A stretch of DNA of 32,000 bases from Acaryochloris thomasi RCC1774 (GCF_003231495.1 NZ_PQWO01000001.1:210001-242000), one strand, 5' to 3'; positions 12,953 to 29,062 are shown, counted from the stretch's first letter. Notes: generated from the letters alone by a model not told the origin. Program-made: numbers and translations.

Positions 12953-13597
12953 TTGAACAGACTGATTGTTCCCAGTCCTGTCTATGATGTGGAAGAGATG
13001 TTTGTAGATTCGACGATTCCTATGCCTCTGCAGCTACAGTGCCACAGTTCCCCGCAGTGGATTGATGCCGTCCTCGCGGACTTCGACCCCTTCTTGCTTG
13101 ATCATGCTGCCAACGAGAAGAAAGCCTCAGGCGTAGCCATGAACTTAGCCGCCCACTATCCCGACAAGCCGGAACTAGTGGCCGAGATGATTGATTTAGC
13201 AATTGAGGAACTGAGCCACTACCGCGATGTTTTTAAGCTGATTCGAGAGCGCCAGCTTACGATCCCCCCCGATCAGAAAGATCCCTACGTGAATCAGCTC
13301 CGCGCCCTGATTCGGAAAGGAACTGAGTATTATTTTTTAGATCGGCTCCTGGTGGCAGGCATCATTGAAGCCCGTGGGTTAGAACGGTTTACCTGCATTG
13401 CTGACGCGCTCCCAATGGGCAAGCTGAAAGGATTTTATGTTGCGATCGCACGTTCCGAAGCCCGCCATGCCGACCTATTCCTCTCCTTAGCACAACAGTA
13501 TTTTGACCCCAACGCCATCACAACGCGGCTTGAAACCTTGCTCACCCAGGAAGCAAATTTGTTAGAGAATCTACCCGTCAGAGCTGCACTTCATTGA
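12953..13597 (+). CDS. miaE: tRNA-(ms2io6A37)-hydroxylase MiaE (ferritin-like di-iron protein)
   Basis: The longest ORF starts at TTG 12953. An in-frame ATG at 12998 would give 199 aa and may be the true start. MiaE-like motifs are LLDHAANEKKASGVAMNL, AIEELSHYRDVF, GIIEARGLERF and ARSEARHADLF, which are E/H di-iron ligand helices. Confidence 0.78.
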   Translation: MNRLIVPSPVYDVEEMFVDSTIPMPLQLQCHSSPQWIDAVLADFDPFLLDHAANEKKASGVAMNLAAHYPDKPELVAEMIDLAIEELSHYRDVFKLIRERQLTIPPDQKDPYVNQLRALIRKGTEYYFLDRLLVAGIIEARGLERFTCIADALPMGKLKGFYVAIARSEARHADLFLSLAQQYFDPNAITTRLETLLTQEANLLENLPVRAALH

Positions 13598-13646
13598 GTT
13601 CTCTACCTAGTCAAATTGCAGCGAACCAGCCACAGCTTTCAGCCGT

Positions 13647-13675
13647 CTCTCCCCAGAATTGGGGGGTCGGGGGGC
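13647..13675 (+). repeat. G/C-rich palindromic dispersed repeat, copy A
   Basis: ctct-cccc-agaatt-gggggg-tc-gggggg-c. It belongs to the same family as the copies at 25922-25953 and 26152-26183. Confidence 0.8.
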
Positions 13676-15576: not shown

Positions 15577-16542
15577 CTACGACCAAGCCCGGAAGAACGT
15601 ATTTTCTTCCCAGATATTTGCGGTTAAACGCTCAATGTTTTCCCTGTCGGCTTGGGCTAAGGGCTGGTATTGCTGAGCAACAGCAATATTCCCTGCAAGC
15701 TGCTCCGGCGTCTCAGCAGCAATGATGCACCCGTGAACCCCATCGAGTGATAGCGTATAGCCCATCGCTTGACGCATATCTAAGGCACCAGGTTTTAACA
15801 GCCTGCCGTAGGCTGGGACTTTCATGGCAATAACGCCCACGTTCTGCTTTTGAGCCACTGGCAACACGGTGGTGGCAAAAGGGCGGGGGTGGTGAATATC
15901 GGCGGCGTTAATAGAAACAAGTGTGGTATCAAACGGATAGCGCTGCAGACCTTCGGCAATAATATCGGGTTCATGGTGTCCGGTGATGCCGCTGAAGCGA
16001 ATCAGCTTCTGCTCTTTGGCTTCTTTAATCGCTTCAATAGCTCCATCTTTAGCAAAGATAGCCTCTAAATCTTCTGGGTAAGACACATGGTGAAGCTGCC
16101 ATGAATCAAGGTGGTCAGTTTTGAGTCGATTCAGCGAACGCTCTAAATTCCGCCAGGCTCCGTCGCGGTCTCGGGCTGCGGTTTTGCTGGCGAGGAATAC
16201 CTGCTGTCGGTACTGGGGCAAAATCTTGCCGAGATACTCTTCACTGGGGCCGTAGCTGGCGGCGGTGTCGAAGTAGCGAATACCAAGCTGGAGGGCTTTT
16301 TCGATAATTGCGATCGCATCTCCCTCTTGCCCTGATCTTGACAGAGGTGTTTGCCCTGCTCCGCCCAGCCCTAAGATCGGCAGCGCTACCCCCGTCTTCC
16401 CCAGTACGCGTTCAGGCATTTGCCCCGTTGTGAGATCAACTTGAGATGCAGCACGGGGTGGTTGAGTGAGAGCTTTACAGCCTACGGCTCCAGCCGCAGC
16501 CAAGCTAGAAATCAAAAAGTTTCGTCTCGTTTTTCGCGCCAT
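15577..16542 (-). CDS. Aldo/keto reductase with a twin-arginine (Tat) signal peptide
   Basis: The ORF is open from GTG 16566, but ATG at 16542 gives MARKTRRNFLISSLAAAGAVGCKA, which is a T-R-R-x-F-L Tat motif plus h-region. The AKR core includes LGLGGAG, IRYFDTAASYG, HLDSWQLHHV and the GITGH region. Confidence 0.88.
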   Translation of the reverse strand: MARKTRRNFLISSLAAAGAVGCKALTQPPRAASQVDLTTGQMPERVLGKTGVALPILGLGGAGQTPLSRSGQEGDAIAIIEKALQLGIRYFDTAASYGPSEEYLGKILPQYRQQVFLASKTAARDRDGAWRNLERSLNRLKTDHLDSWQLHHVSYPEDLEAIFAKDGAIEAIKEAKEQKLIRFSGITGHHEPDIIAEGLQRYPFDTTLVSINAADIHHPRPFATTVLPVAQKQNVGVIAMKVPAYGRLLKPGALDMRQAMGYTLSLDGVHGCIIAAETPEQLAGNIAVAQQYQPLAQADRENIERLTANIWEENTFFRAWS

Positions 16543-16696
16543 TTTGGCCCCCTGTGCGATGGACACCTCTCTAAACTAACGAATCAACCCGCAAGAAGGG
16601 CAGGCCCCTTTATCCGGCAGCACCCTTGCAGTTGAGCTTAAGACGTTTCGTTTTTTCTCCCCGAAGGGCTGAAATAGCGGCAACAGAGGCAAAAAG

Positions 16697-18445
16697 CTAT
16701 TTCAGGTTTGCTTCTAGCTTTTGCTTATCCCAGAGAGATTGATAAAGACCCGGTTTGCCGATTAGGTCTGTATGGGTTCCTTCTTGAACAATGGTGCCGT
16801 GGTCCATGACTAGGATGCGATCGCAAATGGCTGCCGCCGACATCTGGTGTGAAATGAACAACACCGTTTTCTGTTGATGGGCCAGTTCCTGCAAAATCTT
16901 GGTGGCCGTTTGATTATCAACGCTAGATAGCGAATCATCCAAAATCAAAATGGGCGCATCTAAAATCAAGGCTCGTGCTAGAGAGGTACGCTGTCGCTGG
17001 CCGCCGGAAAGCGTCACGCCCCGTTCCCCGACCAGGGTTTGATACTGTTTCGGGAACGTCAGTACGTCGCTCTGAACCTGAGCTTGCTTCGCCGCGTTTT
17101 CGACATCAGACTGCTCTTGATGGGGAACGCCATAGCGAATGTTGTTCTGTAGGGAGGTGCTGAATAAAAAGCTGTCTTGAGGAACATAGGCAATCGCGCC
17201 CCGGAGATCGTTGAGCGCCAGTTGCGTAATATCTTGACCATCAATGAATAACTGCTCTGCGGGGATATCGAGCAGTCGCGGAATCGCATTAGCAAGGGTT
17301 GATTTGCCCGACCCAATCGGACCCACCACCGCCACCATCTCACCGGGTTGAATCTCAAAGTTAACGCGATCCAGCGCTCGCTCTTTGCCGTAGTGAAACG
17401 TCAGATTACGAGCCGTCAGTTGCCCTTTGACCTCAGATCTAGGCAGCGGCAGGCTGTCGGGTCGGGTTTCGACTTTAGGCTGCACCGAGAGAATGGCTTG
17501 GATGCGGTCGATGCTCACCTCACCCCGCTGATAGGCCGTAATCGTGAAGCCCAAAATCGCGGTGGGAAAGATCAGCTGCTGGGCGTAGATCAGCAAAGAA
17601 ACAAAATCGCCAACGGAAATCGTGGCACTTGCGATCGCACGTCCACCAAAGAACAGCAGCACTAGCAAACTAATGCTAGCAAAGCCCCCCACCACCGGGA
17701 AAAGAATATTGCGCGTTTTCAGCAGAGCCACCTTGGCCTCGAGCAGCTCTTGATTGCGTGCCTCAAAGGCCTGCTGCTCCATCGGCTCTTGGGCATAGAT
17801 CTTAATCAGCGCCATCCCGCTCATGTCTTCTTGCACAAGCTGACTGAGTTCAGACAAAGAGTTCTGAACAGCGGCCTGCTGCTCCCGCAATCGGTGGCTA
17901 AAGACGTTCACCACAATCATGACAATGGGGTAGACCGCCAGGGTTGCCAACGTCAAACTGACGTCAATTTTCAGCATGTAGGGCAGCCGCAGCGCATAGG
18001 CAAAAGTCGTATTGGCAATGCTTAGGATTGAAAAGCCCACCAACCGCCGAATATTTTCGACATCGCTGGTGGCTCGGTTAATCAGATCGCCCGCGCTATT
18101 GGTGGCAAAGTAAGACGGCTCCAGGCGCAGCAAATGTTCAAAAATTCGCTGCTTAATATCAAACTCAACCAGACGACCGGCACCAAAAAGCCACATCCGA
18201 GAGGCCATCCGAATCACCCACATCACAGAAGCCAGCAGACAGAACTGTAGAACGTAGCCTCGTACCTGCTCCATGCTGAAAGCAATCTGTAGATCATCGA
18301 CAACCCGGCCGATCAACAGCGGCAGATAAGTCCCTAGACCATTGACAAGCAGCAGCGCAAAGACGCCCAAAAACACCTTCCTTCGATGCGGCTGCAAATA
18401 GCCAAGGAGAATTTTAAGGCGCTGCGGTTGTGGTTTAGCGGTCAT
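16697..18445 (-). CDS. ABC exporter, fused permease/ATPase half-transporter (MsbA/CydDC-like architecture)
   Basis: 582-aa ORF with a six-TM N-terminal domain. ATPase motifs are Walker A GPIGSGKST, the Q-loop, signature LSGGQRQR, Walker B LILDDSLS and H-loop ISHQ. Confidence 0.92.
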   Translation of the reverse strand: MTAKPQPQRLKILLGYLQPHRRKVFLGVFALLLVNGLGTYLPLLIGRVVDDLQIAFSMEQVRGYVLQFCLLASVMWVIRMASRMWLFGAGRLVEFDIKQRIFEHLLRLEPSYFATNSAGDLINRATSDVENIRRLVGFSILSIANTTFAYALRLPYMLKIDVSLTLATLAVYPIVMIVVNVFSHRLREQQAAVQNSLSELSQLVQEDMSGMALIKIYAQEPMEQQAFEARNQELLEAKVALLKTRNILFPVVGGFASISLLVLLFFGGRAIASATISVGDFVSLLIYAQQLIFPTAILGFTITAYQRGEVSIDRIQAILSVQPKVETRPDSLPLPRSEVKGQLTARNLTFHYGKERALDRVNFEIQPGEMVAVVGPIGSGKSTLANAIPRLLDIPAEQLFIDGQDITQLALNDLRGAIAYVPQDSFLFSTSLQNNIRYGVPHQEQSDVENAAKQAQVQSDVLTFPKQYQTLVGERGVTLSGGQRQRTSLARALILDAPILILDDSLSSVDNQTATKILQELAHQQKTVLFISHQMSAAAICDRILVMDHGTIVQEGTHTDLIGKPGLYQSLWDKQKLEANLK

Positions 18446-18673: not shown

Positions 18674-19282
18674 CTACTGAAAGTAAAAGGCCAGGAAGAT
18701 ATGAAACGCCAGCATCACCATAAAGAGACTGACAAAAATGATGTGACTCGATAGCCAAATCAGCCGCAGCCCGCGAATCAGTGGCCCCTTTGTAGTGGTG
18801 GGGAACACTTTCGCAACGGCACCTAGCTGCAGCGGTACCAAGCCAAAATATTTACGAGGCGATTCTAAAACACCCGTTTCAGCCACAACACCCATCAGTG
18901 CGGAGAGAGAGGTGCCCCAGAAAATCCAGAGGAAGATCATGTTGAAGTTGTCCCCCACCTGGCCGCCGGTATGAACCAAAATCATCGCGATCAGACCCAC
19001 GCCCAGGAAAATATGCAGGCTCCGCCACAGCACCATCGATCCTGGGATGCTGATTTTCCAGCGACGGCCTCGCTTTCGCACCGTCAACAGCATCTCCAAA
19101 ATCACAAAGGCCAGGGCGGTAAACCCTGTAATCATTTTATACAAGTCACCCTGCAAGGCCTCTAAGAGGTCAAAGGAATGCTCGCGCATTAACGGAATAT
19201 AGAGGGGACTAAACGCGAACGGCAGTAAAACGGCTGCCGTAATCAGCAGCAGAACAATGAGGGTTGAGAACTTGGGTTTCAT
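18674..19282 (-). CDS. Integral membrane protein with two H-X13-H pairs, candidate di-heme cytochrome b
   Basis: The ORF is open from GTG 19327, but ATG at 19282 (MKPKFSTLIVLLL) is the more plausible start. About 5 TM segments are present. Two of them carry histidine pairs 14 positions apart: SLHIFLGVGLIAMILVHTG and SSHIIFVSLFMVMLAFHIF. This is the bis-His ligation spacing seen in bc1 cytochrome b and ferric-reductase-type domains. It is the last gene of the heme operon. Confidence 0.55.
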   Translation of the reverse strand: MKPKFSTLIVLLLITAAVLLPFAFSPLYIPLMREHSFDLLEALQGDLYKMITGFTALAFVILEMLLTVRKRGRRWKISIPGSMVLWRSLHIFLGVGLIAMILVHTGGQVGDNFNMIFLWIFWGTSLSALMGVVAETGVLESPRKYFGLVPLQLGAVAKVFPTTTKGPLIRGLRLIWLSSHIIFVSLFMVMLAFHIFLAFYFQ

Positions 19283-19370
19283 ATCGTGGCCGTGAATAAA
19301 GCAGCGCAAAACCCCAAAGGGTTCCACGCTGCACCGTCAATATCACGGAGCCTGAGTCACCGATGTGAGC

Positions 19371-20021
19371 CTAGGCACCTTCCAGCGGAATGTTGATCAT
19401 GATGCCGCCCATGACATCGTCGAGCTTGAAGACCTTGTCGGGGTAACGCTCTTTGTGAATCGGGTGGGTGTTGTGGCAGGTGACGCAGGCCTCTGCCACA
19501 GCCTTATCAGGATAGAGAGCCGAGAAATACTTCTGGCCGCCGACCTCCTGATATTCCTTGTAGGGTTCTCCTGTTTCGTTCACTTGCTCAATGGCCGTTT
19601 GCTCAAAGTCACTCTTTGGCCCCTGATTGTCATTGATGTACCAGGAAGAGATTAGGTTATAGGTAAAGGTGCCATCTTCTGAGGCTATCTCAGACCCCAG
19701 CCGAAACATTTGGGCCGGTAGCGGAATCCCGTTGGTCTGCTCCCACCCTTCGGTGGCTTCAATCTCAAGGACACCATCGTCTTTGGGCTTGCCTTCTAGT
19801 TTCTTGGCCCGATTAACGACGTGCTTCGTGTAGGCTGTGCGGTCTGAAGCCAGTGCGGTATGAATATAATCAGCTACTAACTCGGGCTGAACGCCCCCGG
19901 CCTGTGTCTGGGCACCGCCACCGCTACAGGCTACGGCGGTGAAGCAAATAACAATCGCCAGGGCAAATAAACCTAGGGTTCGTTGACGAAATCGTCGGAT
20001 TTGTCTGTTCGCAGAAATCAT
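19371..20021 (-). CDS. DUF3365 / Tll0287-like monoheme c-type protein (possible lipoprotein)
   Basis: 216-aa ORF. The signal peptide ends AVACSGGG. DUF3365-like blocks are IPLPAQMFR and LISSWYINDNQGPKSDFEQTAIEQV, with a single CVTCH heme site and the C-terminal FKLDDVMGGIMINIPL. Confidence 0.8.
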   Translation of the reverse strand: MISANRQIRRFRQRTLGLFALAIVICFTAVACSGGGAQTQAGGVQPELVADYIHTALASDRTAYTKHVVNRAKKLEGKPKDDGVLEIEATEGWEQTNGIPLPAQMFRLGSEIASEDGTFTYNLISSWYINDNQGPKSDFEQTAIEQVNETGEPYKEYQEVGGQKYFSALYPDKAVAEACVTCHNTHPIHKERYPDKVFKLDDVMGGIMINIPLEGA

Positions 20022-20093
20022 GTCGTCTGTTTCCTCTCAAGTAATCAAAGTGAAGCTGAGATCCAGGGGCCGATGGTTATGCGTGCAGCGGCT

Positions 20094-20891
20094 CTAATTG
20101 CCCGACCGCTGTTTTTCTAGGGCGCGGACCATCTCTAGGGTTTGCAGGGATTCAGTGGGCGGTCGGGCAAAGTTGGAGGCCACTAGGTCATCATCGAAAA
20201 TGCTTTTGTAGGCGTATTCCATACCGTGACAGTTCATACAGACTTCTTTGACCATGCGATCGCGAGGCAACAGTGTATACGTGTTGTTGTGATTGACTTG
20301 AGTCGGCTTTCCACTGCCTGCGTCATGGCGCGGGAGATGGCAGGCCGCACAGGTTGTGGACTGTGCAGAGGGGCGAGGCAGCGTTCCTTCCTGCTGCCAG
20401 AGCTGGGCGTGTTTTGAGTTTTTGTAGTTGCGAGAATGATCGTCGTTGTGACAGCTTAGGCAGCTATCGACTGCTGCTGTTTGGGTCTTAACCGTGTGGA
20501 CATCGTGACAGGTGTTGCAGTTCATGACCTGGTTTTGGGCCTCAACTTTCATGGGCAAGTGGGCCATGGCAGGCGTCAGCGGCGACTCCCCCTCCAGCAG
20601 ACGAATGCCGTGCTTACCGAGCAAGAACGTATCCACCGCCTGTTCGTGGCAGGAGCGACAGCTCTCGTGGTCTGGCTGAGCAATAAACTGCTTGCTCTTT
20701 GAATCTTGATGGCAGCTAGAGCAGTTCACTTCGGCAAGGGCATGGGCACTTCCCTGCCAGCGTTCGGTGATCTCCTGAAGTTCAGCTTCTGTAGATGCTA
20801 TTGCATCTACAGAAGAGCCAAAAAACGGCTCTAGGAAAACGCCCCCCATAAGGCAGTACAGAGAAATGAGCAAGACACTCAGCACCTTCAT
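20094..20891 (-). CDS. Hexaheme c-type cytochrome (periplasmic/lumenal)
   Basis: 265-aa ORF with a signal peptide. Six CXXCH motifs are present: CSSCH, CRSCH, CNTCH, CLSCH, CAACH and CMNCH. Its start overlaps the upstream gene stop by 4 nt (ATGA). Confidence 0.9.
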   Translation of the reverse strand: MKVLSVLLISLYCLMGGVFLEPFFGSSVDAIASTEAELQEITERWQGSAHALAEVNCSSCHQDSKSKQFIAQPDHESCRSCHEQAVDTFLLGKHGIRLLEGESPLTPAMAHLPMKVEAQNQVMNCNTCHDVHTVKTQTAAVDSCLSCHNDDHSRNYKNSKHAQLWQQEGTLPRPSAQSTTCAACHLPRHDAGSGKPTQVNHNNTYTLLPRDRMVKEVCMNCHGMEYAYKSIFDDDLVASNFARPPTESLQTLEMVRALEKQRSGN

Positions 20892-21535
20892 GAGCGCCCC
20901 CCTTTGAACTCTTGCGATAAATCAGGTTTCGGGGCTGTTTGAACTTTCGTTGTCACCGTTCGCACGGGCAAAGCAGGCTGGGGCATAAAGTCAGGCTGAT
21001 CAAGGTTCTGGCGCAGAAATCCTGTGGAAATAGTGCGATGGTCATGGTAGTTGTGGCATCCGGCCGTCCAGCAGCCATCAGCGGTGAACCCATCGTGGCT
21101 TTTCAGATCACCCTCAATGATGCCCTGATGGCAAGCCATACAGAGATCGGGCTTTAGATTGACGCCCCGGCCAAACATATGGACGTGCTCGTTATGGCAG
21201 GTGGTACAGGTCAACGCAGCTATTTTTTCTAAGTCACCTGCCCATCGAGGATCACGGAACTTCTTCGCACCGTGGGCATCCGTCGCCATCTCGGCTTCGT
21301 GACAGCGCAGGCAGGTTTCATTGCTGACAGGTTTAAATCCTTCATGACAAGAGGCGCAAGAGGCTTCGAATAAAACGTGGCCATCCGAGGTTGTGCCCGG
21401 GAGAAACACCGTCTTGTGATCGGTGGCAAAGGCAGCCCCGAGCCAACAGGTCAACAGCAAGCAGAGCGTCACCACAGCCGTTTTGACACTCAACAAATTC
21501 CCGATGCGGAAACGTCTGCGGGTGTTGGCAGTCAC
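20888..21535 (-). CDS. Cytochrome c3-like pentaheme protein (4 x CXXCH plus 1 x CX4CH), N-terminally anchored or secreted
   Basis: 215-aa ORF. The GTG start is preceded by GGAGG 7 nt upstream. Heme motifs are CASCH, CLRCH, CTTCH, CMACH and CWTAGCH (21053-21073). The last resembles the CGTAGCH site of Desulfovibrio tetraheme cytochrome c3. Confidence 0.9.
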   Translation of the reverse strand: MTANTRRRFRIGNLLSVKTAVVTLCLLLTCWLGAAFATDHKTVFLPGTTSDGHVLFEASCASCHEGFKPVSNETCLRCHEAEMATDAHGAKKFRDPRWAGDLEKIAALTCTTCHNEHVHMFGRGVNLKPDLCMACHQGIIEGDLKSHDGFTADGCWTAGCHNYHDHRTISTGFLRQNLDQPDFMPQPALPVRTVTTKVQTAPKPDLSQEFKGGRS

Positions 21536-21549
21536 ACCGAGCCTCCGGT

Positions 21550-22620
21550 CTATACCAGCAGGGCGATCACGATCACGGCAATCACCCCCCCGGCAATGAG
21601 GGCGAGCAGACCTTTTTCACTACCCTCCTCTAAGTTCTCCGCAACGCTGGCCTTTGGCTCGCCTTCAGCATTCGCCATTGTGACCGGCTCTGCATGTGTA
21701 GGCGACTCAACTGCAGGCGGAGACGTTTCTAGCTGCACCTGCTGCTGGGTATAGTCTGCACCATCCAACATGATCTCAGTAATGGTGCCGTAGGCATCGA
21801 CCCAGGCCTCTTTGACCTCCGGTCTCCAGTCTTGACCGAGATACTGCTCAAAGGTCTTCAGCAAAGAGTTACCCACCAGCGGATAATGCTCTGGCAGTGC
21901 CCCATACTTTACATGGCGCGCCCCCAGCCCTCTCAAGCTTTTGCTCAGAACCTCAGGGTTACGCAAGTTCTCAATCACAAGCACCAAAGACTGCAGTAGC
22001 TTCTGCTCCTGCTCCTTCATATGGGTGTTCTCAAACAGCGGCTTCGCGGCTGGATAGTCGGTGAACAGATTTGTATAAAAACTACCGACAAACGCACTTG
22101 CCTCAGGCGTAATCTGGGCAAAACTCTTCTCCAGTAACTGCACCTGATGCTCGGCGGCATCCGGCTCAGCGACGCTAGGTGCACTCGCGCCTTCCAGCTC
22201 TAGATCCGCTGCGTTATAGTCTGCACCTGCGAGCATCGTTTCACTGATGGCTCCGTAGGCATCAACCCAGGCCTGCTTCACTTCTGGGGTCCAGTCCTTG
22301 CCGAGGTACTGCTCAAAGGTCTTCAGCAAAGAGTTACCCACCAGCGGATAATGCTGCGGCAGGGCACCATACTTCACATGGCGCGCGCCTAAGCCTTCCA
22401 GGGCGTCACCAAGAATCTCAGGGTTACGCAGATTTTGAATCACAAGCACGAGAGATTTAAGCAGCTTTGGCTTTTGCTCCTCCATTGCGGTGCCTGCAAA
22501 CAGCGGTTCAGCCGCAGGATAATCTGTGAATAAGTTGTCGTAGAAGCTAGTGACAAAATCATCAGCCATCGGCTTAATTTGGTCAAAACTACGCTCTAAT
22601 GTTTCTACTTGTAAAGACAT
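21550..22620 (-). CDS. Tandem (two-domain) Vitreoscilla-Hb/flavohemoglobin-type 3-on-3 globin with a C-terminal TM anchor
   Basis: 356-aa ORF with two copies of a globin fold (aa 3-135 and 158-290). Each aligns by eye to VHb: FY(D/T)NLFTDYPAA.PLF (B10 Tyr), EEQKPK/KEQEQK (E7 Gln), LGARHVKYG (F8 His) and HYPLVGNSLL...AWVDAYG. The C-terminal LLALIAGGVIAVIVIALLV is a TM tail. There is no N-terminal signal peptide. Confidence 0.85.
   Translation of the reverse strand: MSLQVETLERSFDQIKPMADDFVTSFYDNLFTDYPAAEPLFAGTAMEEQKPKLLKSLVLVIQNLRNPEILGDALEGLGARHVKYGALPQHYPLVGNSLLKTFEQYLGKDWTPEVKQAWVDAYGAISETMLAGADYNAADLELEGASAPSVAEPDAAEHQVQLLEKSFAQITPEASAFVGSFYTNLFTDYPAAKPLFENTHMKEQEQKLLQSLVLVIENLRNPEVLSKSLRGLGARHVKYGALPEHYPLVGNSLLKTFEQYLGQDWRPEVKEAWVDAYGTITEIMLDGADYTQQQVQLETSPPAVESPTHAEPVTMANAEGEPKASVAENLEEGSEKGLLALIAGGVIAVIVIALLV
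21751..22614 (-). repeat. Internal tandem duplication of the globin domain (period 465 nt)
   Basis: A 49-nt identical block tactgctcaaaggtcttcagcaaagagttacccaccagcggataatgct occurs at 21842-21890 and at 22307-22355. The flanking sequence is similar across roughly 400 nt per unit. Confidence 0.85.
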
Positions 22621-22900
22621 AGACTAGGAACGCTCCATCAGAAAAGATTGAGTCAGAAACATTGTTTTATGTATGCGTTGCAGGTCGATGATAGACACGT
22701 AAATCAAAGATCTAGGTCATATAAACCACCTACTCATGACCTGTCAGCTTGGTCAATACCTGAAGGAATTTCAACATTGTAAGCTACAGTTCATCTTGAT
22801 CAGAAGGTCTTCATACCTTAGACCTAAAACCTACTATTAAAGAAGGTTTACACCAATGAGATTTTATTTTTTAGACCTCTAATCTGAACAGTATTTGAAT

Positions 22901-22942
22901 AAGTTAAAGAAGGTTCCGGATCACATTCGTAGCTCTTGCTAC
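22901..22942 (-). promoter_or_regulatory. NtcA-type class II promoter architecture (GTA-N8-TAC, N22, TAN3T) oriented toward the globin operon
   Basis: Minus-strand read: GTAGCAAGAGCTAC (22942-22929), then 22 nt (gaatgtgatccggaaccttctt), then TAACTT (22906-22901). It lies about 280 nt upstream of the globin start at 22620. Confidence 0.35.
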
Positions 22943-23276
22943 TAAAAAAGAACATCCTTTGCAAATAAGGCATGAAAGAATTTCTTTTTTTGCATATCAG
23001 TGAAGATAGGAATAGAAATACAAAAGATGGCGGGAAAAAAGCTGTTGATAGACATAGTAATAAGATCACTATTTGCATCCAAAAACACGAATACAAATAG
23101 TGATTGAATGTGTACTCTTGAGCGCTAATTTTTTGCAGGTTATAGCCGTACGCAGCCGAGTCGAGGTAGCGAGTTACTGCTTTGGGTACCTCCGTTAGTG
23201 TGCCGCCACATTCCTCTGCCTAATTGTGGTGCACTGGAACGGTCCTATCTTCCCTGAGGTCACCAGCCACCAAGGG

Positions 23277-24197
23277 TTAAAGGTTTAAAGCCCGTCCACG
23301 TATCAGCGTTTGATGCTGCTGTTCAGAGAGTCCTTTCGCATTGGTAAAGACAGCGCCAGCAACCACACAGTCAGAAAAATCAACGTTTGTTAGAGTCGTA
23401 CTTTCCAAATTGGCATCTCGAAAATCTGCGCCGGTCACAGTTGCGTCTGAGAGGTCAGCTCCCTCCAAATTAGCGCTGTAGAAGGATGCTTCTGTCAGAT
23501 TGGCTCCCACAAGCTGAGTCTGCAGCAGCTCTGCATGGTCGAGGCTGGCTTGCTGGAGCTGAGTTGCCTGCAGAATTGCGCCCCGCAGCTTGGCGGCAAT
23601 GAGGTCAGCGTTAGTTAGATCCGCTCCCCGCAAATCTGCTTGCTGCAGAAGACAACGTTCTAGAGCCGCTCCCATCAGTTGAGCGTTGGGCAGTTGCGTC
23701 CCCTTGAGAACGGCATCATTTAGTTTTGCGCCGCGCAGATCGGCCTGCGGAAACTGTGCTGCTGTTAAATTAGCCTTCATTAAAATGGCGTCTCGGAAAC
23801 AGACGGTCTCTCCCTGGGCTTCTGTAAAATCAGCATGTTCCAAGATGGCTCTAGAGAAATCAGCCCGATCTAAGGTAGCTTTAGGAAGCTTGATGCCTGA
23901 AGCATTCACGGCCTGTAGCTGCGTTCCCTCTAGGTGAGCGGCGTTCAATAGCGCCTGTGAGAGGGTCGCCTGCTGAAAGTTCGCCCCTGAGAGCTTCGCT
24001 AACATCAAGGTCGCGGCGGTGAAGTTCGCGTGGCTGCATGAGGCTCCGGTCAGGTTTGCCAACCGAAGATAAGCTTGCTCAAACTGTCCCTGATCGAGCT
24101 GGGCGTTCTGCAAGTCAATATTGCTCAGTTCAGCGCCCTGGAGCGATTGCCCCTGCTGAACCTGGCTCTGGACTTCTGCCGCCGTCATGGTTGTCAT
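23277..24197 (-). CDS. Pentapeptide-repeat protein
   Basis: 306-aa ORF made almost entirely of A(D/N)LxG-type pentapeptides (ANLTGASCSHANFTAATLMLAKLSGANFQQATLSQALL...). No signal peptide is present. Its ATG at 24197 (or 24188) overlaps the 3' end of ccsA. Confidence 0.9.
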   Translation of the reverse strand: MTTMTAAEVQSQVQQGQSLQGAELSNIDLQNAQLDQGQFEQAYLRLANLTGASCSHANFTAATLMLAKLSGANFQQATLSQALLNAAHLEGTQLQAVNASGIKLPKATLDRADFSRAILEHADFTEAQGETVCFRDAILMKANLTAAQFPQADLRGAKLNDAVLKGTQLPNAQLMGAALERCLLQQADLRGADLTNADLIAAKLRGAILQATQLQQASLDHAELLQTQLVGANLTEASFYSANLEGADLSDATVTGADFRDANLESTTLTNVDFSDCVVAGAVFTNAKGLSEQQHQTLIRGRALNL

Positions 24198-25863
24198 AAT
24201 TTTGCACCGCTGCTGTAAACCTCAAGCCGCCTTGATGACGGACGATTGCACTCAACACAAAGAGCAGATCTAGCCCGACGAAACCCGCCACAATCAAGGC
24301 GGAGCCACCGGTACTAAAGCCATAGCTGTGCAGTCCAGTCCCCAAAACAAAGTTGACGCCGTACCAAGCCATTAGCACGGCGTTGAAGGAAACGACGCTG
24401 GCAATGGTGAGACCAAAGGCACCGATCCAGCCCACTAAGCGACCGTGAAGTGGAGCCAAGTAGCACAGCAGCGCAATCAGCGCCCAGGTCTCTTTTGGAT
24501 CCCAGCCCCAAAACCGTCCCCAGGAGAAGTGCGCCCAGATGCCGCCCAAAATGATGCCTGCCGTTAACAGTAGGATGCCGACTTGCAGAACCTGATAGTT
24601 CCAGCGGGACAGCTTCTGAATCTGTTGGGATTGAGGCAAGAACAGATAGTAGCCCAGGGTCACGTGGCCTAGCCCCATCGCTAGGGCGAAGCTAGCGTAG
24701 CCGAGGGTAATCGTAGGGACATGGATGCTGAGCCAAAAATTATCCCGTAGAACTGGCACCAGGGGGCTGATGCTGGGGTCGAGAACAGCGGGAAGGCTGT
24801 CGGCTAACACCAAACACAGAACCGATAGAGGGGCTGCTGCCAATAGGTAGTAGTGGGCTTTGGATCGCCACTCGAAGAGCAGGGCCAGCGCTGCAATGCC
24901 AAATCCGACCCAGATCACGGATTCGTACATATTAGTGACGGGGGGACGATCTGCAATCTGTACCCGCAGGAGAAAACCATAGCACTGGGTCAATAATCCG
25001 GCACTGAAAACGCCCATTGCGCTCCAGTACAGATTCCATTGGGGAAAGTTGAGCGCCATCAGCATCAAAATAAATGCGATCGCATATAGCCACCAAGCTT
25101 TGGCAAAGGGATGGAAGTGATTGAAGAACACCTCTCGCTGGAGGATGCGATCGCTTGGATAGATCTGCGGGCTCAAGTCCACAAGCTGCTGACGCAAAGT
25201 CTCTGCCTGCTGCCCCACCGCCGCTAGGTTCTGCGGATCTTGCAAATAGGTCTGCTGGAGCTGCTCAAACTGAGCGATCAGGCGACTGGAGTTAGGGTAG
25301 TAAGCCTCGCTGTCGGTTAGCCCGAGCCATTTGCCCTTTAGATCGCTGGGATGGGGAACCAGCGGTAGAGATTGAGACCCGACGGTCTGCATCATCAGAT
25401 CAATGCGATCGTAGAGGTTGAGGGCTTCTCGTTCATCTCGCGTCAGGGTTTGATCTTGGCTTTGCTTCTGTTCTGCTGTTTGCAGAAGGTTGCCTAAGTC
25501 AGACTGCGCTAATGCCGCAAAGGAAAAGTGTTTTTGGTCGGGATTAAGACCTAGTTTTTCTTTGAGCGGACGATAGCTCAATAGAATGAACGGCTCCTGA
25601 TTCCAGTTGCGATCGTTCCACCACAGGGAGAGGTAGGTTTGCTGGCTGTTTAGGCGCTGCCCTGTCTCAGTGCGGTAGCTCGGAGAACCGTGAATCTGGG
25701 CTACGGTCTCGCGGGCCACGGTATCTAGGGGCTTTTTACGGCCTTCAAGCTGAACGGCAAAGGTGGACAGCGAGTCTAAGGGGTGGTCTTGAGATTGGCT
25801 GAGGGGCGCTAGGAGAATGAGTAAGCCCAGACAAAGACTCAGGAGAAATTTAGGAGTTTTCAT
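24130..25863 (-). CDS. ccsA: Cytochrome c biogenesis protein CcsA/ResC-type (System II heme-handling WWD protein) with a long N-terminal extracytoplasmic extension
   Basis: The ORF is open from 25977, but that extension is translated repeat sequence. ATG at 25863 gives MKTPKFLLSLCLGLLILLAPLSQS. After a soluble region of about 250 aa come about 8 TM segments and the W-rich motif WGRFWGWDPKETWALIALL, with conserved His residues in the flanking loops. Confidence 0.87.
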   Translation of the reverse strand: MKTPKFLLSLCLGLLILLAPLSQSQDHPLDSLSTFAVQLEGRKKPLDTVARETVAQIHGSPSYRTETGQRLNSQQTYLSLWWNDRNWNQEPFILLSYRPLKEKLGLNPDQKHFSFAALAQSDLGNLLQTAEQKQSQDQTLTRDEREALNLYDRIDLMMQTVGSQSLPLVPHPSDLKGKWLGLTDSEAYYPNSSRLIAQFEQLQQTYLQDPQNLAAVGQQAETLRQQLVDLSPQIYPSDRILQREVFFNHFHPFAKAWWLYAIAFILMLMALNFPQWNLYWSAMGVFSAGLLTQCYGFLLRVQIADRPPVTNMYESVIWVGFGIAALALLFEWRSKAHYYLLAAAPLSVLCLVLADSLPAVLDPSISPLVPVLRDNFWLSIHVPTITLGYASFALAMGLGHVTLGYYLFLPQSQQIQKLSRWNYQVLQVGILLLTAGIILGGIWAHFSWGRFWGWDPKETWALIALLCYLAPLHGRLVGWIGAFGLTIASVVSFNAVLMAWYGVNFVLGTGLHSYGFSTGGSALIVAGFVGLDLLFVLSAIVRHQGGLRFTAAVQNYDNHDGGRSPEPGSAGAIAPGR

Positions 25864-25921
25864 GTTCGCGGGTGGTGACTGGGCGATTGAGAATGGGAGA
25901 GGTTCCAGATTGATTTGCACT

Positions 25922-25953
25922 GCCCCCCCGGCCCCCCAATTCTGGGGGGAGAG
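25922..25953 (-). repeat. G/C-rich palindromic dispersed repeat, copy B (inverted relative to copy C)
   Basis: The reverse complement reads ctct-cccccc-agaatt-gggggg-cc-ggggggg-c. It has 1 mismatch to copy C over 32 nt. Confidence 0.85.
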
Positions 25954-26151
25954 AGGCCGAGGTTCTGCATTTCCCAATAGATATCGCTACGGGAGCATTG
26001 TCTGTTGATAAAAATGGCGTAAGCAGACGCTTGGGAAGATCGTGGAGTACCTGTATTCGTCCCCAATATTCGCTGACACTGCGGGACTTCAAGTACTCAA
26101 TGATTTTTATCAAACTCGAAAGCTGTTGCGAACTTGAGAGGATGCTGTCGA

Positions 26152-26183
26152 CTCTCCCCCCAGAATTGGGGGGCTGGGGGGGC
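26152..26183 (+). repeat. G/C-rich palindromic dispersed repeat, copy C
   Basis: ctct-cccccc-agaatt-gggggg-ct-ggggggg-c. Confidence 0.85.
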
Positions 26184-26226
26184 CAATGCAGAACGGAGCG
26201 GTTTTTACTCCAAAAAGGAAAGAGCA

Positions 26227-28065
26227 TCACGTCTCTACCTGGACTGTGCTGTTTGCGAGGGGCTCTGACCGACCTGCCCCTAAAGGAGAAGCTTTGCTAA
26301 CGGCCATCGCATCTTCCTCCACAAACCTCTCTGTAGGTCCTGAGGTCATCGTTCGCCAATATTTGCCGAGATGTTTGCCATAGAACATCGTGCTAATGCC
26401 GCTCACCACGAGCAGCGCCCCACTCCAGGTCAAAGCCGTTACCCACAGCGGTTCTCGCTTGACCTGCAGCGTAGACTGATTCAAATCACCTGGATTCCAG
26501 GAGGCTTGGGCAATCTTCCAGCCCTGATACCAAGTGGGGTGATTCATCCAGACATCTCGATGCTCAACGCTGCCCGTGTGGGGATCCTGCAGCTTGACTT
26601 TGCTGGTCCACATGGCGACGGACTCATCCCCTTCATTGCGCTCGACAATGAAGTCTTCAAGGCCCAGGTCAAAGGGGAGCGCCAGCGATCGAGGACTGAA
26701 AAAGGCAAATATGGCCCCCGCTGCATCGTTCAGTTCCGATGGTTCGCCCCAAGGTAGCCACTGTTCAGCGCCGGTTGGGGTCGTCACGAGCAAACCAGGG
26801 GAGCCTTCTTGATCAGATGGCACCACCTGACGCTGCACCTGCGCCTGGGTCAGCTCATTCACTAAGGTGATCTGAAAATCTGCCCAGCCCGTCTGAACAG
26901 GCTGTCCCGGCACCAACGGTTCTGAGGTAAACTCTTGAGCAGAGCGGAGGCCATAGAAAATCTGCCCCTGAGAATCGGCAACGACGCGGAAGAGACGGTC
27001 CGCAACGAGCGGGGCTGTCTGATAGGTAATTTCTAGATTTTGGGCGTTAATGTTGGGGCTGAGTTCAGTTCCTGACAGGACGGTCCGCACGGGGTCAAAC
27101 CCTTCCTGAGCAAAGACATACCAGCGCTCAACGCCAGTTGAATGCTGGACCTCAAGGCCCAAAACGGGGTTCCGTAGCTCTTGGGAAATCGTGATCGGCT
27201 GTGATTGATTATTAAGGCGAAAGTCAGGCCAAACATGGCTCACGGTTACCTGCAGATCGCGATCCAGCTTAAGGGGGTGATCGAGGGCCTGCTCGACATC
27301 TAAGGTCTGCTTTTTACCTCTTGTCTCAATCTGCATCTGCCCCCATCGGCCAAGGACTGAGTTCTGAGATTCAGATAAAAGCTGCTGTAGCTGTTGGTCG
27401 TCTTCAGCCTGCACTAGCTCTAGCTGGGCAGGGCCAAGCGTTGTCTGGCGATACGCACGCGGAAAGTCAGCTAGCCAAACCTGCGTCGATTGGCCCATAC
27501 GATCGCTGTTGAGCTGTAGCTGCACCGCTCGATTGGGAACCGCGCCCCCTTCGGCAAACTGAATGGTTTCAACGACGTGATCGCGATATCCCAGCAGGGA
27601 CAGACCATTAAACTGAGCAGGTGACACGGACTGATCTGGATTCACTCGCAGCAGAGTTTGCTGCGGCTCTTGCCCCCATTGGGCCACCTCCAGCATGTCT
27701 CCTTCCGTACTTAGTTGATGCTGAGGGGGGCCGTCTGTGCGCAGCACGAGCATCCCTTCAGCACCCAGATGGATCACGGCAGCGGAGCCAGCAATCAAGA
27801 CAATCAGGCCCAGATGCGCTAGCGCGAAGCCGATCTTCCGCGCTCCTTTCCAGGGATAGCGAGATAGGGCAGAAACACCAAGATTGACGGCGAGCATCAA
27901 CATCAAGGCCCCAAACCAGGGGCTCTTATAGATCAGCTGCTGGACTGCTGCGGAACCCACCTGAGTTTCGTAAAACGTTGCGCCGATCAGGATAGTTGCG
28001 ATCGCACTGAGCAGCGGCACCGCCAGCTTGATGGACCCTAAAAATGGATAAACTTTGGCGAACAT
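26227..28065 (-). CDS. ccsB: Cytochrome c biogenesis protein ResB/CcsB(Ccs1)-type (System II)
   Basis: 612-aa ORF. The ResB-like N-terminus is FLGSIKLAVPLLSAIATILIGATFYE...SPWFGALMLMLAVNLGVSALSRYPW...FALAHLGLIVLIAGSA. A large extracytoplasmic domain follows, then the C-terminal WMNHPTWYQGWKIAQASW and a final TM segment. Confidence 0.85.
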   Translation of the reverse strand: MFAKVYPFLGSIKLAVPLLSAIATILIGATFYETQVGSAAVQQLIYKSPWFGALMLMLAVNLGVSALSRYPWKGARKIGFALAHLGLIVLIAGSAAVIHLGAEGMLVLRTDGPPQHQLSTEGDMLEVAQWGQEPQQTLLRVNPDQSVSPAQFNGLSLLGYRDHVVETIQFAEGGAVPNRAVQLQLNSDRMGQSTQVWLADFPRAYRQTTLGPAQLELVQAEDDQQLQQLLSESQNSVLGRWGQMQIETRGKKQTLDVEQALDHPLKLDRDLQVTVSHVWPDFRLNNQSQPITISQELRNPVLGLEVQHSTGVERWYVFAQEGFDPVRTVLSGTELSPNINAQNLEITYQTAPLVADRLFRVVADSQGQIFYGLRSAQEFTSEPLVPGQPVQTGWADFQITLVNELTQAQVQRQVVPSDQEGSPGLLVTTPTGAEQWLPWGEPSELNDAAGAIFAFFSPRSLALPFDLGLEDFIVERNEGDESVAMWTSKVKLQDPHTGSVEHRDVWMNHPTWYQGWKIAQASWNPGDLNQSTLQVKREPLWVTALTWSGALLVVSGISTMFYGKHLGKYWRTMTSGPTERFVEEDAMAVSKASPLGAGRSEPLANSTVQVET

Positions 28066-28252: not shown

Positions 28253-29062
28253 CTCTTTAGCAAACACGCTTAGATTGCATTGCGGCCCCTATGCCACACG
28301 AAGAGAGAAAGGTAAAGGCAACCCCCACTAAAGCCGATAGGACTTCAAAGAAAAATGCAATTGAGCTGGAAAATACGATTTTTGTTCAGGGTCAGTTTCA
28401 CGATTGAGAAAGCAGAGAACCGCTGATTTTAGCCTCAGTTGATAATTTTAGAAATTTGTTTTTTGGGCCAATCCCGTATTTATACGGAGGGGATTAGTAA
28501 GCAAGCTGTGACTGAAATCACAGAAAGAACAGGTAGAGAACTCAACATCCGTAAAAACACGGATTCACCATCGGGAAAGCCTATAGAAAGGAGCTTTGCA
28601 GCTCAATGGTTGGTCGAAAACCTGACGTTGATGTTGAATTGAGCTGATATCAGGTGCGTTTTCAAACCTGAAAATATACATTCATTTTCAAGATTTCTCT
28701 TTTTTGCGACAAAAAGCGAGCATTGTGTGATTTGAATTCCAGTACGTTTCCGGAGTTCAGCATGGGCATACTAACGACTAAGTTAGGAACAAGCGGGGGG
28801 CAGTGTGACCCGAAAGGTGATCAAACTTGCCCCTATCCTGACATCAATGACTCTATCCAGTGTTCGAGTCTCTCACTCTAAAACACCTGTCCTTAATTCA
28901 TATAGAAACAGAGGCGGTGTGACGAGAGTTTGTTCTGAGGTTCCAGCTCAAAGCAAACACGGGTGCAACACACACCCAGTCGAATTGAGGTCACACCGTA
29001 CCTCTGCCAGACGATGCCTATCTCTCGCAAGTTTGTTCATTTCACCAGCTAAGAAGACACCT

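Follow-up and report, generated by a model that had tools for sequence, protein, structure and literature searches.

In Bradyrhizobium, a single-domain globin and a flavoprotein, encoded in a nitrate-assimilation operon under NasS-NasT control, remove nitric oxide (NO) that arises from nitrate assimilation (PMC4724949). Partial resemblances to this system and to several other described heme-protein systems are seen in an operon of the cyanobacterium Acaryochloris thomasi RCC1774. The operon lies on the minus strand, at positions 18674-22620, of a stretch of 32,000 nucleotides (nt) (GCF_003231495.1, NZ_PQWO01000001.1:210001-242000; hereafter the window, with positions counted from its first letter). 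It encodes a di-globin, a pentaheme cytochrome (c5), a hexaheme cytochrome (c6), a Tll0287-like monoheme lipoprotein (Tll-like), and a small membrane protein (Mem). Here we compare this operon with its relatives in cyanobacteria and in other phyla and propose a function for it.

The Bradyrhizobium pair, Bjgb-Flp (narK-bjgb-flp-nasC; PMC4724949), combines a flavohemoglobin (FHb)-type globin with an NAD(P)H flavoprotein in a nitrate context, as do the non-cyanobacterial operons described below, whose context consists of NasT-like regulators and nitrate ABC transporters; in cyanobacteria, the corresponding context would be NtcA-type promoters. Unlike the window operon, Bjgb-Flp is wholly cytoplasmic and has no membrane cytochrome b, c-type hemes, or Cache-heme protein. 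On the other hand, the window operon has no flavoprotein, and its globin is duplicated and tail-anchored.

DUF4405-type proteins, which contain four central His residues, have been shown to bind heme b in the membrane (PMC11334425). Mem shares with these proteins, and with the MsrQ-like, PepSY-like, and NOX/FRE families (PMC11334425), the four His, their location on two parallel helices, and a predicted cytoplasmic N-terminus. The homologous proteins outside cyanobacteria would also share the logic of NOX, in which electrons pass from NAD(P)H through flavin and two b-hemes to the outside. However, Mem has five helices, compared with six in DUF4405/NOX-type systems. Where a reductase accompanies the Mem domain, it precedes this domain and is NirB-like, with a [2Fe-2S] domain, whereas that of NOX is C-terminal and of the FNR type. 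In addition, the predicted acceptor in the Mem module is an undecaheme cytochrome, in contrast to O2, Fe(III), or a flavinylated protein in NOX/FRE/DUF4405 systems.

The heme of Tll0287 is ligated by His and Cys (PMC12889525, citing the crystal structure of Tll0287). According to a recent preprint, Cache-heme domains without the Cys bind NO tightly, whereas Cys-ligated stand-alone ones are redox proteins; Cache-heme proteins also make superoxide readily with O2 (PMC12889525). The Tll-like protein resembles Tll0287 of Thermosynechococcus (sCache_heme) in having the PF11845 domain, a CXXCH motif near the C-terminus, a stand-alone architecture, and a predicted extracytoplasmic location. It lacks the axial Cys found in Tll0287 and in the stand-alone protein of Pseudomonas putida. 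In this respect it resembles the NO-binding signaling subgroup, but it has no signaling domain. Unlike Tll0287, it is a lipoprotein and is always encoded beside undecaheme genes.

The two multiheme cytochromes have the dense CXXCH motifs and candidate bis-His ligands of the c3/NrfB/MtrA/HAO superfamily. They differ from its described members in that only the cut-off of the generic Cytochrom_c3_2 model is reached.

The Operon in Acaryochloris thomasi

A five-gene heme-protein operon had been proposed from the window sequence alone (hereafter the original prediction), and we confirmed this observation. All five open reading frames (ORFs) are present in the window translations on the minus strand.

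21550-22620, minus strand: predicted tail-anchored di-globin, 356 amino acids (aa); two Pfam Globin domains and a C-terminal transmembrane (TM) helix
20888-21535, minus strand: pentaheme cytochrome c5, 215 aa; four CXXCH motifs and one CX4CH, Cytochrom_c3_2
20094-20891, minus strand: hexaheme cytochrome c6, 265 aa; six CXXCH motifs, Cytochrom_c3_2
19371-20021, minus strand: Tll0287-like monoheme c-type lipoprotein, 216 aa; PF11845, lipobox, CVTCH
19301-19332, minus strand: GC-rich hairpin of 14 bp with TTTATT after it, located between the Tll-like and Mem genes in a gap of 88 nt
18674-19282, minus strand: five-helix membrane protein Mem, 202 aa, putative di-heme cytochrome b; four invariant His

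The spacings are also as predicted (14 nt, a 4-nt ATGA overlap, 72 nt, and 43 or 88 nt, depending on the start of Mem). The c5 gene starts with GTG, preceded by GGAGG, and c6 is translationally coupled to c5 via the ATGA overlap. The extent first given for Mem, 18674-19327 from a GTG, is possible, but the ATG at 19282 is very probably the true start because homologs have 202-204 aa and the hairpin fills 19301-19332. This hairpin, detected in a scan for terminator-like structures (14 pairs, eight of them G-C, with a loop of 4), could be a partial terminator or an mRNA stabilizer and could set the ratio of Mem to the cytochromes.

Pfam searches of the window found two Globin domains, Cytochrom_c3_2 on both multiheme proteins, and PF11845; nothing was found for the membrane protein. 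The predicted number of covalent heme sites (5+6+1) was correct, but not all of them have the CXXCH form, since the fifth site of c5 is a CX4CH motif (CWTAGCH). All 12 c-heme motif sites are invariant among homologs. We likewise found no match to the named pathways nrf, hao, otr, mtr, and cbc. Although the five genes form a real operon, the conserved unit is bigger and spans 18674-28065 in the window; it includes an upstream ResB/CcsA heme-attachment pair on the same strand, which the original prediction did not mention.

Conservation among Cyanobacteria

A total of 492 homologs of c6 could be detected, and those with names are all cyanobacterial; the nearest one in this search, with 93% identity, belongs to a marine cyanobacterial genome bin. 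The window's own c6 had no exact entry among public assemblies. When one genome per species was scanned, relatives of c6 were found in 178 species genomes, and all named organisms among the best 80 relatives were cyanobacteria. Most of the hosts live in the sea, on the bottom, or in mats; they include Acaryochloris, Moorena, Coleofasciculus, Lyngbya, Spirulina, Halomicronema, Pleurocapsales, and Leptolyngbyaceae, as well as a Geitlerinema from black band disease.

We examined 83 related loci. Wherever the contig is long enough, the five genes follow one another on one strand in the order globin-c5-c6-Tll-Mem, a recurrence far beyond chance. Both c5 and c6 are present in all 83 loci, the Tll-like protein in 82, the globin in 80, and Mem in 78, and protein identity across cyanobacterial orders is approximately 60-70%. 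Within Acaryochloris, the gene arrangement matches that of the window, including the placement of ResB/CcsA. In Acaryochloris marina MBIC11017, the operon falls within positions 4,424,913-4,445,638 of NC_009925 (locus L009).

Additional genes were observed in other cyanobacterial loci. A thioredoxin that is anchored in the membrane and bears the motif WCTTC is encoded in 54 loci, a Rieske protein of the Tat-lipoprotein type, most similar to PetC, in 35, and a heme-binding lipoprotein resembling ChaN in 13; in some loci, a further single globin follows Mem. Examples of these added genes are found at L003:3009-3533, 12542-13069, 13174-13659, and 16483-17373. None of the four (Rieske protein, WCTTC thioredoxin, ChaN-like protein, and extra globin) was detected in the window by tblastn. 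In Synechococcus 7002, PetC3-type Rieske lipoproteins face the periplasm (PMC12341915). By analogy, this hints that the c-heme proteins may be periplasmic rather than lumenal.

A Wider Module in Other Phyla

In an exhaustive profile search with c6, the entire cyanobacterial family collapses to one representative. Most of the other strong matches were proteins of 420-480 aa whose C-terminal half contains the c6-like part. These proteins are fusions of c5 and c6, and all eleven heme sites are invariant in them, including the CX4CH motif at the fifth site. The c5 protein is 35% identical to residues 2-187 of the undecaheme of Haloferula, and c6 is 37% identical to residues 215-440. Thus, c5 and c6 are not a c3-like pentaheme plus a separate hexaheme, as first described, but the N- and C-terminal halves of an undecaheme family.

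Named members of the undecaheme family were found in Verrucomicrobiota (Opitutaceae, Opitutales, and Haloferula) and Methylomirabilota, and their annotation is limited to "cytochrome c3 family" or is wrongly NrfA. One example is the undecaheme of Haloferula helveola (P0512, L084:8001-9413), whose record is named "NrfA- nitrite reduction protein". As this protein has no CXXCK motif and matches Cytochrom_C552 faintly, the name is probably an over-annotation.

The genes next to three of these undecahemes were examined. At the Haloferula locus, a 660-aa flavoprotein with Pyr_redox_2 and BFD domains is followed by the undecaheme and then by genes for a Tll0287-like protein and a globin. On a second contig, the flavoprotein, the undecaheme, and a Tll0287-like protein are encoded. 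A third has the same three genes, after which come those for a cytochrome c with one heme, a truncated hemoglobin, and a reductase of the FNR-like kind. Mem of the window aligns to the C-terminal 150-170 aa of the three flavoproteins (E-values 1e-17, 3e-12, and 1e-9), and the alignments retain both H-X13-H pairs. The first 470 residues of the flavoprotein correspond to the NADH/FAD/[2Fe-2S] half of NirB (E-value 5e-109) and also match NorW.

A scan of metagenomes identified more than 416 relatives. We counted genes in 83 non-cyanobacterial loci, many of which are on short contigs: the undecaheme was found in 83, Mem in 75, the Tll-like protein in 70, the flavoprotein in 63, the globin in 37, and the monoheme cytochrome c in 22. 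The usual pattern is flavoprotein-Mem fusion / undecaheme / Tll-like / (monoheme c) / globin, and the globin of this module is soluble. A second, independent fusion of a reductase with Mem was observed in one locus (L152:4253-6865, 870 aa), where two cyclic-nucleotide-binding-like domains, a BFD [2Fe-2S] domain, and an FNR-type FAD/NAD(P)H reductase precede the Mem domain, and undecaheme and Tll-like genes follow.

This kind of system is thus not confined to cyanobacteria. Judging from these comparisons, several phyla share one module, and the operon of cyanobacteria is its rearranged form. In cyanobacteria, the undecaheme has been split, the reductase lost, and a maturation pair added, and the globin has been duplicated, tail-anchored, and placed first. 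A stand-alone NirB-like or FNR-like reductase was not found within 10 kb of the cyanobacterial operons. Conversely, a ResB/CcsA-type pair is almost never carried by the non-cyanobacterial operons (1 of 83 loci), unlike the cyanobacterial ones.

Pentaheme and Hexaheme Cytochromes

In an alignment of 82 sequences, all five heme motifs of c5 and at least five further His are invariant; in c6 (20 sequences), six CXXCH motifs and six further His are invariant. The fused undecaheme family contains nine invariant and two near-invariant extra His for its 11 hemes. We found no CXXCK motif or other open catalytic heme site in either protein. Since there are enough invariant extra His for bis-His ligation at every heme, and CXXCK is absent, c5 and c6 look like a wire rather than an enzyme. 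By counting of His, all their hemes would apparently be bis-His ligated. An AlphaFold2 model of c6, built from the 20-sequence alignment, had a pLDDT of 44 and was unusable for assigning ligands.

Several known families were considered for c5 and c6 and rejected. For the class III tetraheme cytochrome c3 (PF02085), there was no match to c5, and c6 reached 16.9 bits versus a cut-off of 22.9, while the generic Cytochrom_c3_2 model was passed (32.5 and 38.3 bits versus 25). A catalytic enzyme of the NrfA, HAO, or octaheme type does not agree with the lack of CXXCK and with a number of extra His that matches the number of hemes. As for a porin-cytochrome or Mtr-type conduit, a gene for an outer-membrane beta-barrel partner was not found among conserved neighbors (83 cyanobacterial and 83 other loci) or in Pfam scans of the window. 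OccP (922 aa) and UetJ (eleven CXXCH, extracellular) differ in size, motifs, and gene context, and the undecaheme family is distinct from UndA as well. Weak sequence matches to the Protein Data Bank (PDB) included the HAO-like Kustc0458 of Kuenenia (6h5l, E-value 3e-7), NrfA, and the decaheme chain A of 6r2q (E-value 5e-5), which we take to be MtrA of the MtrCAB complex; DmsE and QrcA were weak matches among family models.

Membrane Protein

The original prediction staked its cytochrome b interpretation on conservation of the two H-X13-H pairs of Mem. When 25 homologs were aligned, H90, H104, H180, and H194 (numbered as in the 202-aa protein) proved invariant in every one of them. The AlphaFold2 model of Mem (pLDDT 80.5) contains five TM helices, with the His on helices 83-105 and 165-200: H90/H104 are located on helix 3 and H180/H194 on helix 5. 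According to the positive-inside rule, the N-terminus should be cytoplasmic; H90 and H180 would then lie toward the inner side of the membrane, and H104 and H194 toward the outer side. The fusion of cytoplasmic reductase domains to the N-terminus of Mem homologs independently indicates a cytoplasmic N-terminus. In this model, the placement of His on two parallel helices would suit a pair of b-hemes stacked on each other.

Four conserved His on two TM helices, which characterize the di-heme cytochrome b clan, are thus present in Mem. Pfam matches were below threshold: Ni_hydr_CYTB was detected in 25 of 25 members and DUF4405 in 23 of 25. Mem of the window scored 13.8 bits versus 26.7 for DUF4405 and 8.1 versus 30.1 for Ni_hydr_CYTB, and the best members of the family had E-values of 1.2e-4 and 1.3e-3 in these two scans, without reaching the gathering scores. 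PepSY_TM and Ferric_reduct were also matched weakly. Searches against the PDB gave nothing below E = 7 with Foldseek and no meaningful match by sequence or profile. Considering the four His and the reductase fusions of its homologs, Mem is a putative TM di-heme b electron conduit, with heme b predicted as the cofactor.

We found no evidence that Mem is a quinol-linked entry point, as had been proposed. Elsewhere, its domain forms the C-terminal part of a NAD(P)H/FAD/[2Fe-2S] reductase of the NirB type, and these fusions indicate that the redox partner of Mem is in the cytoplasm and is not quinol. We also rejected a bc1/b6f-type Rieske/cytochrome b complex, since neither a PF00033-type cytochrome b nor a Rieske gene was found in the window.

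In two cyanobacteria (2 of 83 loci), Mem has an in-frame N-terminal extension of approximately 100 aa resembling a winged-helix (MarR_2-like) domain (L027:2730-3668 and L029:12412-13344, from a Xenococcaceae genome bin and Oscillatoria sp. SIO1A7); Mem proteins of this type are P0148, P0159, P0181, and P0191. The extension supports a cytoplasmic N-terminus and hints at a regulatory variant.

Tll0287-Like Lipoprotein

The Tll-like protein matches PF11845 (formerly DUF3365, sCache_heme) over positions 12-144 of the 144-position profile (73.9 bits versus a cut-off of 24.1, E-value 2.4e-20). Its assignment as a DUF3365 heme protein therefore stands, but the axial Cys that defines Tll0287 itself is lacking. 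Its lipobox reads AVAC|S, and all 81 sequences compared keep the CVTCH motif. No Cys other than those of CXXCH was found in the mature chain, either in the window protein or in 80 homologs, which makes the His/Cys ligation of Tll0287 impossible. Because a Cys ligand is absent, the sixth position of the heme is probably labile. Invariant residues include M105 (in LPAQMFRLG), H54, H67, H186, and H189, and M105 is a candidate for a labile sixth ligand.

The Tll-like protein is approximately 38% identical to its counterparts in non-cyanobacterial operons. Sequence and profile searches against the PDB gave no meaningful match, the protein being too diverged.

Di-Globin

The first gene of the operon encodes two VHb/flavohemoglobin-type globin domains, a linker, and a C-terminal TM helix. 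Pfam Globin was found on two stretches of the protein (E-value 2.6e-37; 128 bits versus a cut-off of 22). The best family match was to the NO-inducible flavohemoprotein of NCBIfam, in the globin part only (E-value 1.7e-41), and the best solved relatives are HGbI of Methylacidiphilum (3s1i, E-value 6e-25) and VHb. When the register is taken from the Hmp model NF009805, Tyr B10, Gln E7, and His F8 would correspond to Y182, Q206, and H236 of domain 2. The protein is not a flavohemoglobin (Hmp) proper: NF009805 covers model positions 12-136 of 399, with 142 bits versus 432, and a linker and TM tail are found where Hmp has its FAD/NAD(P)H reductase.

A membrane-tethered di-globin of this type had been predicted, and comparison of homologs agrees with it. 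In 53 of 53 full-length di-globins, including that of the window, the C-terminus is a hydrophobic 20-mer with nothing after it. An N-terminal signal peptide was not found in the di-globin. Together, these two features suggest that the protein is tail-anchored and that both globins are cytoplasmic.

Another match of the window's globin domains (E-value approximately 9e-6) was to the globin domain in a nitric oxide synthase of 1468 aa (9q05 and 9q15), which we take to be cyanobacterial. It is a further case in which an FHb-type globin is paired with NO chemistry.

Nitrogen Context

A candidate regulatory site was found upstream of the operon.

22901-22942, minus strand: NtcA-type promoter candidate GTAGCAAGAGCTAC-N22-TAACTT, 322 nt upstream of the globin ATG

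We analyzed the upstream regions of 73 cyanobacterial loci. The sequence GTAN8TAC was present within 350 nt upstream of the globin in 31 of them, compared with 10.0 +/- 2.5 in GC-matched windows from the same loci. GTAN8TAC-N20-24-TAN3T was present upstream of the globin in 17 of the 73 loci, compared with 0.79 +/- 0.81 (maximum 3) in the controls. These figures overstate the significance because related loci are not independent. The spacer sequences of the sites differ between groups.

In the window, the region upstream of the globin gene (22621-23276, 656 nt) is low in G+C (0.455 for 22001-23000). It contains an imperfect hairpin of 17 pairs (23065-23104) and a hydrophobic 82-aa ORF (22848-23096) that is probably spurious.

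Outside cyanobacteria, approximately 44 loci have enough flanking sequence, and 16 of these contain a NasT-type ANTAR response regulator, mostly directly upstream of the module. Components of a nitrate ABC transporter are encoded in another 11-15 loci; the nitrate-transporter ATPase scored 348 bits against TIGR01184, which is above the curated cut-off. Two independent lines, the NasT and nitrate-transporter neighbors and the predicted NtcA-type promoters, tie the module to nitrogen oxides, and they lend indirect support to the N-oxide hypothesis of the original prediction.

Proposed Function and Alternatives

The nitrogen context, together with the Bradyrhizobium precedent, makes a relay for handling NO (or a close N-oxide), tied to nitrate/nitrite assimilation, our best reading of the operon; we offer it tentatively, at somewhat below an even chance. 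The structural part of this reading, that the proteins constitute a membrane-spanning heme relay, is very probable. Gene content, conservation, invariant motifs, domain fusions, and the enrichment of regulatory sites were observed, whereas heme occupancy, topology, physical association, direction of flow, and substrate are inferred in the model that follows. A chain of approximately 16 hemes would run from the tethered globins through the b-hemes of Mem to the twelve c-type hemes across the membrane. On the cytoplasmic face would lie the tail-anchored di-globin. Mem, with its N-terminus in the cytoplasm, would bind a pair of b-hemes between its helices 3 and 5, one above the other across the bilayer, and the outer face (periplasm or thylakoid lumen) would carry c5/c6 with 11 hemes and the Cache-heme lipoprotein. 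The upstream ResB/CcsA pair would mature the 12 c-heme sites.

In such a relay, the globins may act as NO dioxygenases (NO + O2 + e- -> nitrate), and the relay may keep them reduced, feed an NO-binding heme across the membrane, or both. The likely NO-binding end point on the far side of the membrane would be the Cys-less Cache-heme protein. Electrons could flow inward to the globins, entering c5/c6 from carriers of photosynthesis or of the periplasm and then passing through Mem; this direction would explain both the tail anchor and the lost reductase. Alternatively, they could flow outward, as NAD(P)H-driven flow presumably runs in other phyla. One may go further and suppose that a small di-heme b protein electrically joins tail-anchored globins to twelve c-hemes, so that NO dioxygenation is driven by, or balanced against, extracytoplasmic carriers under nitrogen control. 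This would be a new kind of TM redox complex, a proposal which we regard as rather doubtful.

A number of points weigh against the NO relay. NtcA-type sites were found in only about a quarter of the cyanobacterial loci, and their enrichment is overstated by kinship. A cytoplasmic NO dioxygenase has no obvious need of 12 extracytoplasmic c-hemes, and the cyanobacterial form is without a reductase within 10 kb. With M105 as a ligand, the Tll-like heme may be His/Met-ligated and the protein a plain electron carrier. The globin may be optional, as it was seen in just 37 of the 83 non-cyanobacterial loci (many of the contigs being short). Finally, the Rieske protein linked in 35 other cyanobacterial loci would fit a quinol-oxidizing variant.

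The fusion of the Mem domain to two kinds of NAD(P)H reductase elsewhere implies an outward flow from NAD(P)H, which would suit electron export of the NOX/ferric-reductase type to Fe(III)/Mn(III) chelates for uptake or to other soluble oxidants, with the globins as accessories. The two parallel helices with their H-X13-H pairs likewise point to TM reductases, as do the weak matches to DUF4405, PepSY_TM, and Ferric_reduct (PMC11334425), and both the ChaN-like lipoprotein linked in 13 cyanobacterial loci and the mostly marine benthic hosts would be in keeping with export. However, the cyanobacterial form has no reductase, neither an outer-membrane porin nor a surface cytochrome was found among conserved neighbors, and genes for iron regulation or iron transport are not consistently linked. 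Export would also leave the recurrent globin, the NtcA-type promoters, and the NasT and nitrate-transporter neighbors unexplained, and we consider it unlikely. The nitrogen regulatory context is equally unexplained if the operon is a sink for electrons to O2 or reactive oxygen species, in which the globins would serve as a low-level terminal oxidase or O2 scavenger, fed by the relay, that protects O2-sensitive processes or dissipates excess reductant in mats alternating between oxic and anoxic states. VHb-type globins bind O2 avidly (the nearest solved relative is HGbI of Methylacidiphilum), the membrane tether places the globin next to a heme conduit, most of the hosts are benthic mat formers, and Cache-heme proteins readily make superoxide with O2 (PMC12889525). 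Such a sink is nevertheless improbable, since globins are poor oxidases, the operon has no link to oxygen regulation, and aerobic Verrucomicrobiota have the homologous module beside ordinary oxidases.

Di-heme b membrane subunits are often quinol dehydrogenases, which fits the weak Ni_hydr_CYTB match, and the PetC3-like Rieske protein in 35 other loci could provide a small Rieske/cytochrome b quinol oxidase. On this basis, Mem might oxidize plastoquinol and feed the multiheme wire in a respiratory branch for anaerobic respiration or N-oxide reduction. Against this, the homologous domain is fused to NAD(P)H reductases rather than to quinol-handling subunits, a catalytic subunit is missing (His suffice for bis-His ligation everywhere and CXXCK is absent), and the window has no Rieske gene; such a branch seems quite improbable, though less so for the species in which the Rieske protein is linked. 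That the relay is a sensing device, reporting the extracytoplasmic redox or NO status to the cytoplasm, appears very improbable. It would agree with the occurrence of globin and Cache-heme domains in many gas and redox sensors, with NO binding by the Cys-less ones (PMC12889525), with the winged-helix domain at the N-terminus of Mem in two cyanobacteria, and with the two cyclic-nucleotide-binding domains of one non-cyanobacterial fusion. Yet the window proteins have no output domain, the winged-helix fusion is limited to 2 of 83 loci, and eleven wire hemes with dedicated maturation would be costly for a sensor. Oxidation of sulfide or thiosulfate in sulfide-exposed mats, suggested by analogy with the His/Cys hemes of Tll0287, SoxAX, and TsdA, is hardly credible. 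It draws on the Tll0287-like family name, on the His/Cys ligation of Tll0287 itself (PMC12889525), and on the presence, among the hosts, of mat formers that tolerate sulfide, for example the Geitlerinema of black band disease. It was rejected because the axial Cys is absent from the Tll-like protein: without a Cys outside CXXCH in the window protein or 80 homologs, such ligation is impossible, and sulfur-metabolism genes were not linked among the conserved neighbors of the cyanobacterial and other loci.

Significance of the Proposed Relay

A literature search found no description of the cyanobacterial operon or of the wider module. Every part belongs to a known superfamily, and it is the combination at the system level that appears to be undescribed: a predicted TM di-heme b protein together with eleven plus one c-hemes, globins with a tail anchor, and a heme lyase dedicated to the system. 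Cyanobacteria are usually described as having monoheme c-type cytochromes only; here, 11 predicted wire hemes and a Cache-heme are encoded in at least 178 species, together with heme-attachment genes of their own. The comparison across phyla also reveals a widespread and apparently unstudied operon of a NirB-type reductase-Mem fusion, an undecaheme, a Cache-heme protein, and a globin. It gives an unclassified family of membrane proteins a likely role and provides a candidate answer to an old question, namely what reduces the single-domain globins of bacteria.

If the cyanobacterial operon encodes the new kind of TM redox complex supposed above, it would be a lineage-specific solution within this reductase-cytochrome b / undecaheme / Cache-heme / globin system. 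As an NO relay, it would link NO handling to nitrate assimilation in mat-forming phototrophs. A natural TM electron conduit in phototrophs could also be of interest for biophotovoltaics. As culturable hosts such as Acaryochloris marina exist, these claims are directly testable.

Heme-Attachment Pair and Neighboring Genes

Three further genes lie upstream of the operon on the same strand.

26227-28065, minus strand: ResB/CcsB-like System II maturation protein, 612 aa; Pfam ResB PF05140
24130-25977, minus strand: CcsA-like System II heme-handling protein, 615 aa from a TTG start; Cytochrom_C_asm, WWD motif
23277-24197, minus strand: pentapeptide-repeat protein, 306 aa; Pfam Pentapeptide, E-value 2.1e-56

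The ResB-like protein matches PF05140 (E-value 1.9e-12; 47.2 bits versus a cut-off of 24.6) and has no NCBIfam match, which suggests a divergent copy. The CcsA-like protein matches Cytochrom_C_asm (PF01578, E-value 1.1e-30; 107.3 bits versus 29.9), and its translation contains a WWD motif, WGWDPKETW. Thus, the ResB and Cytochrom_C_asm domains and the WWD motif, by which System II is recognized, are all found in the window pair. With TIGR03144, the CcsA-like protein scored 155 bits, under the equivalog cut-off of 187.6, and we therefore call the pair divergent. Both proteins are much longer than would be expected of housekeeping versions. Within 10 kb of the five genes, a ResB homolog was found in 53 of the 83 cyanobacterial loci and a CcsA homolog in 49, in varying orientations.

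From these features, the two genes read as a dedicated System II pair that would mature the 12 c-heme sites. NrfI, CcsA1, and CcsA2 of Wolinella are substrate-dedicated System II heme lyases. As in Wolinella, a separate ResB/CcsA-type pair is present beside its presumed client cytochromes, one of which (c5) has a non-standard CX4CH site. Specificity of the pair for CX4CH, or for one membrane, would be pure conjecture.

The start sites around 24130-24197 and 25863-26227 are uncertain. Homologs of the CcsA-like protein have 566-580 aa, and the TTG start of the window gene lies 38 codons ahead of a Met that would match this length, so that the true start is likely this Met at approximately 25863, giving approximately 577 aa. 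It would leave a gap of approximately 360 nt after ResB, partly filled by a 126-aa ORF in an alternative frame (25850-26230). The CcsA-like and pentapeptide-repeat ORFs overlap by 68 nt as called (24130-24197).

The pentapeptide-repeat gene adjoins CcsA in Acaryochloris-type loci (50-67% identity) and occurs within 10 kb in 47 of 83 loci. Since such proteins are abundant in cyanobacteria, this is weak evidence that it belongs to the unit.

Downstream of the operon, an ABC exporter gene (16697-18445) is followed by an aldo/keto reductase gene (15577-16566, minus strand), neither of which is conserved beside the operon in other species. The reductase has a twin-arginine signal (RRNFLISSLAAAGAVG) and is therefore probably exported, which is unusual for its family.

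Searches of the whole window with Rfam found no RNA family, and a scan for sigma-70 promoters, which found fewer sites than in shuffled sequences, was uninformative. The HIP1 octamer GCGATCGC occurs 18 times in the window, compared with 0.76 expected, in keeping with a cyanobacterial origin. Two large genes seem unrelated to the operon: one encodes a two-partner-secretion exoprotein with a TPS domain (1910-4213, minus strand, 767 aa), beside a stretch of low G+C (0.416 for 4001-5000), and the other encodes a DUF7925 protein (28805-31681, plus strand, 958 aa).

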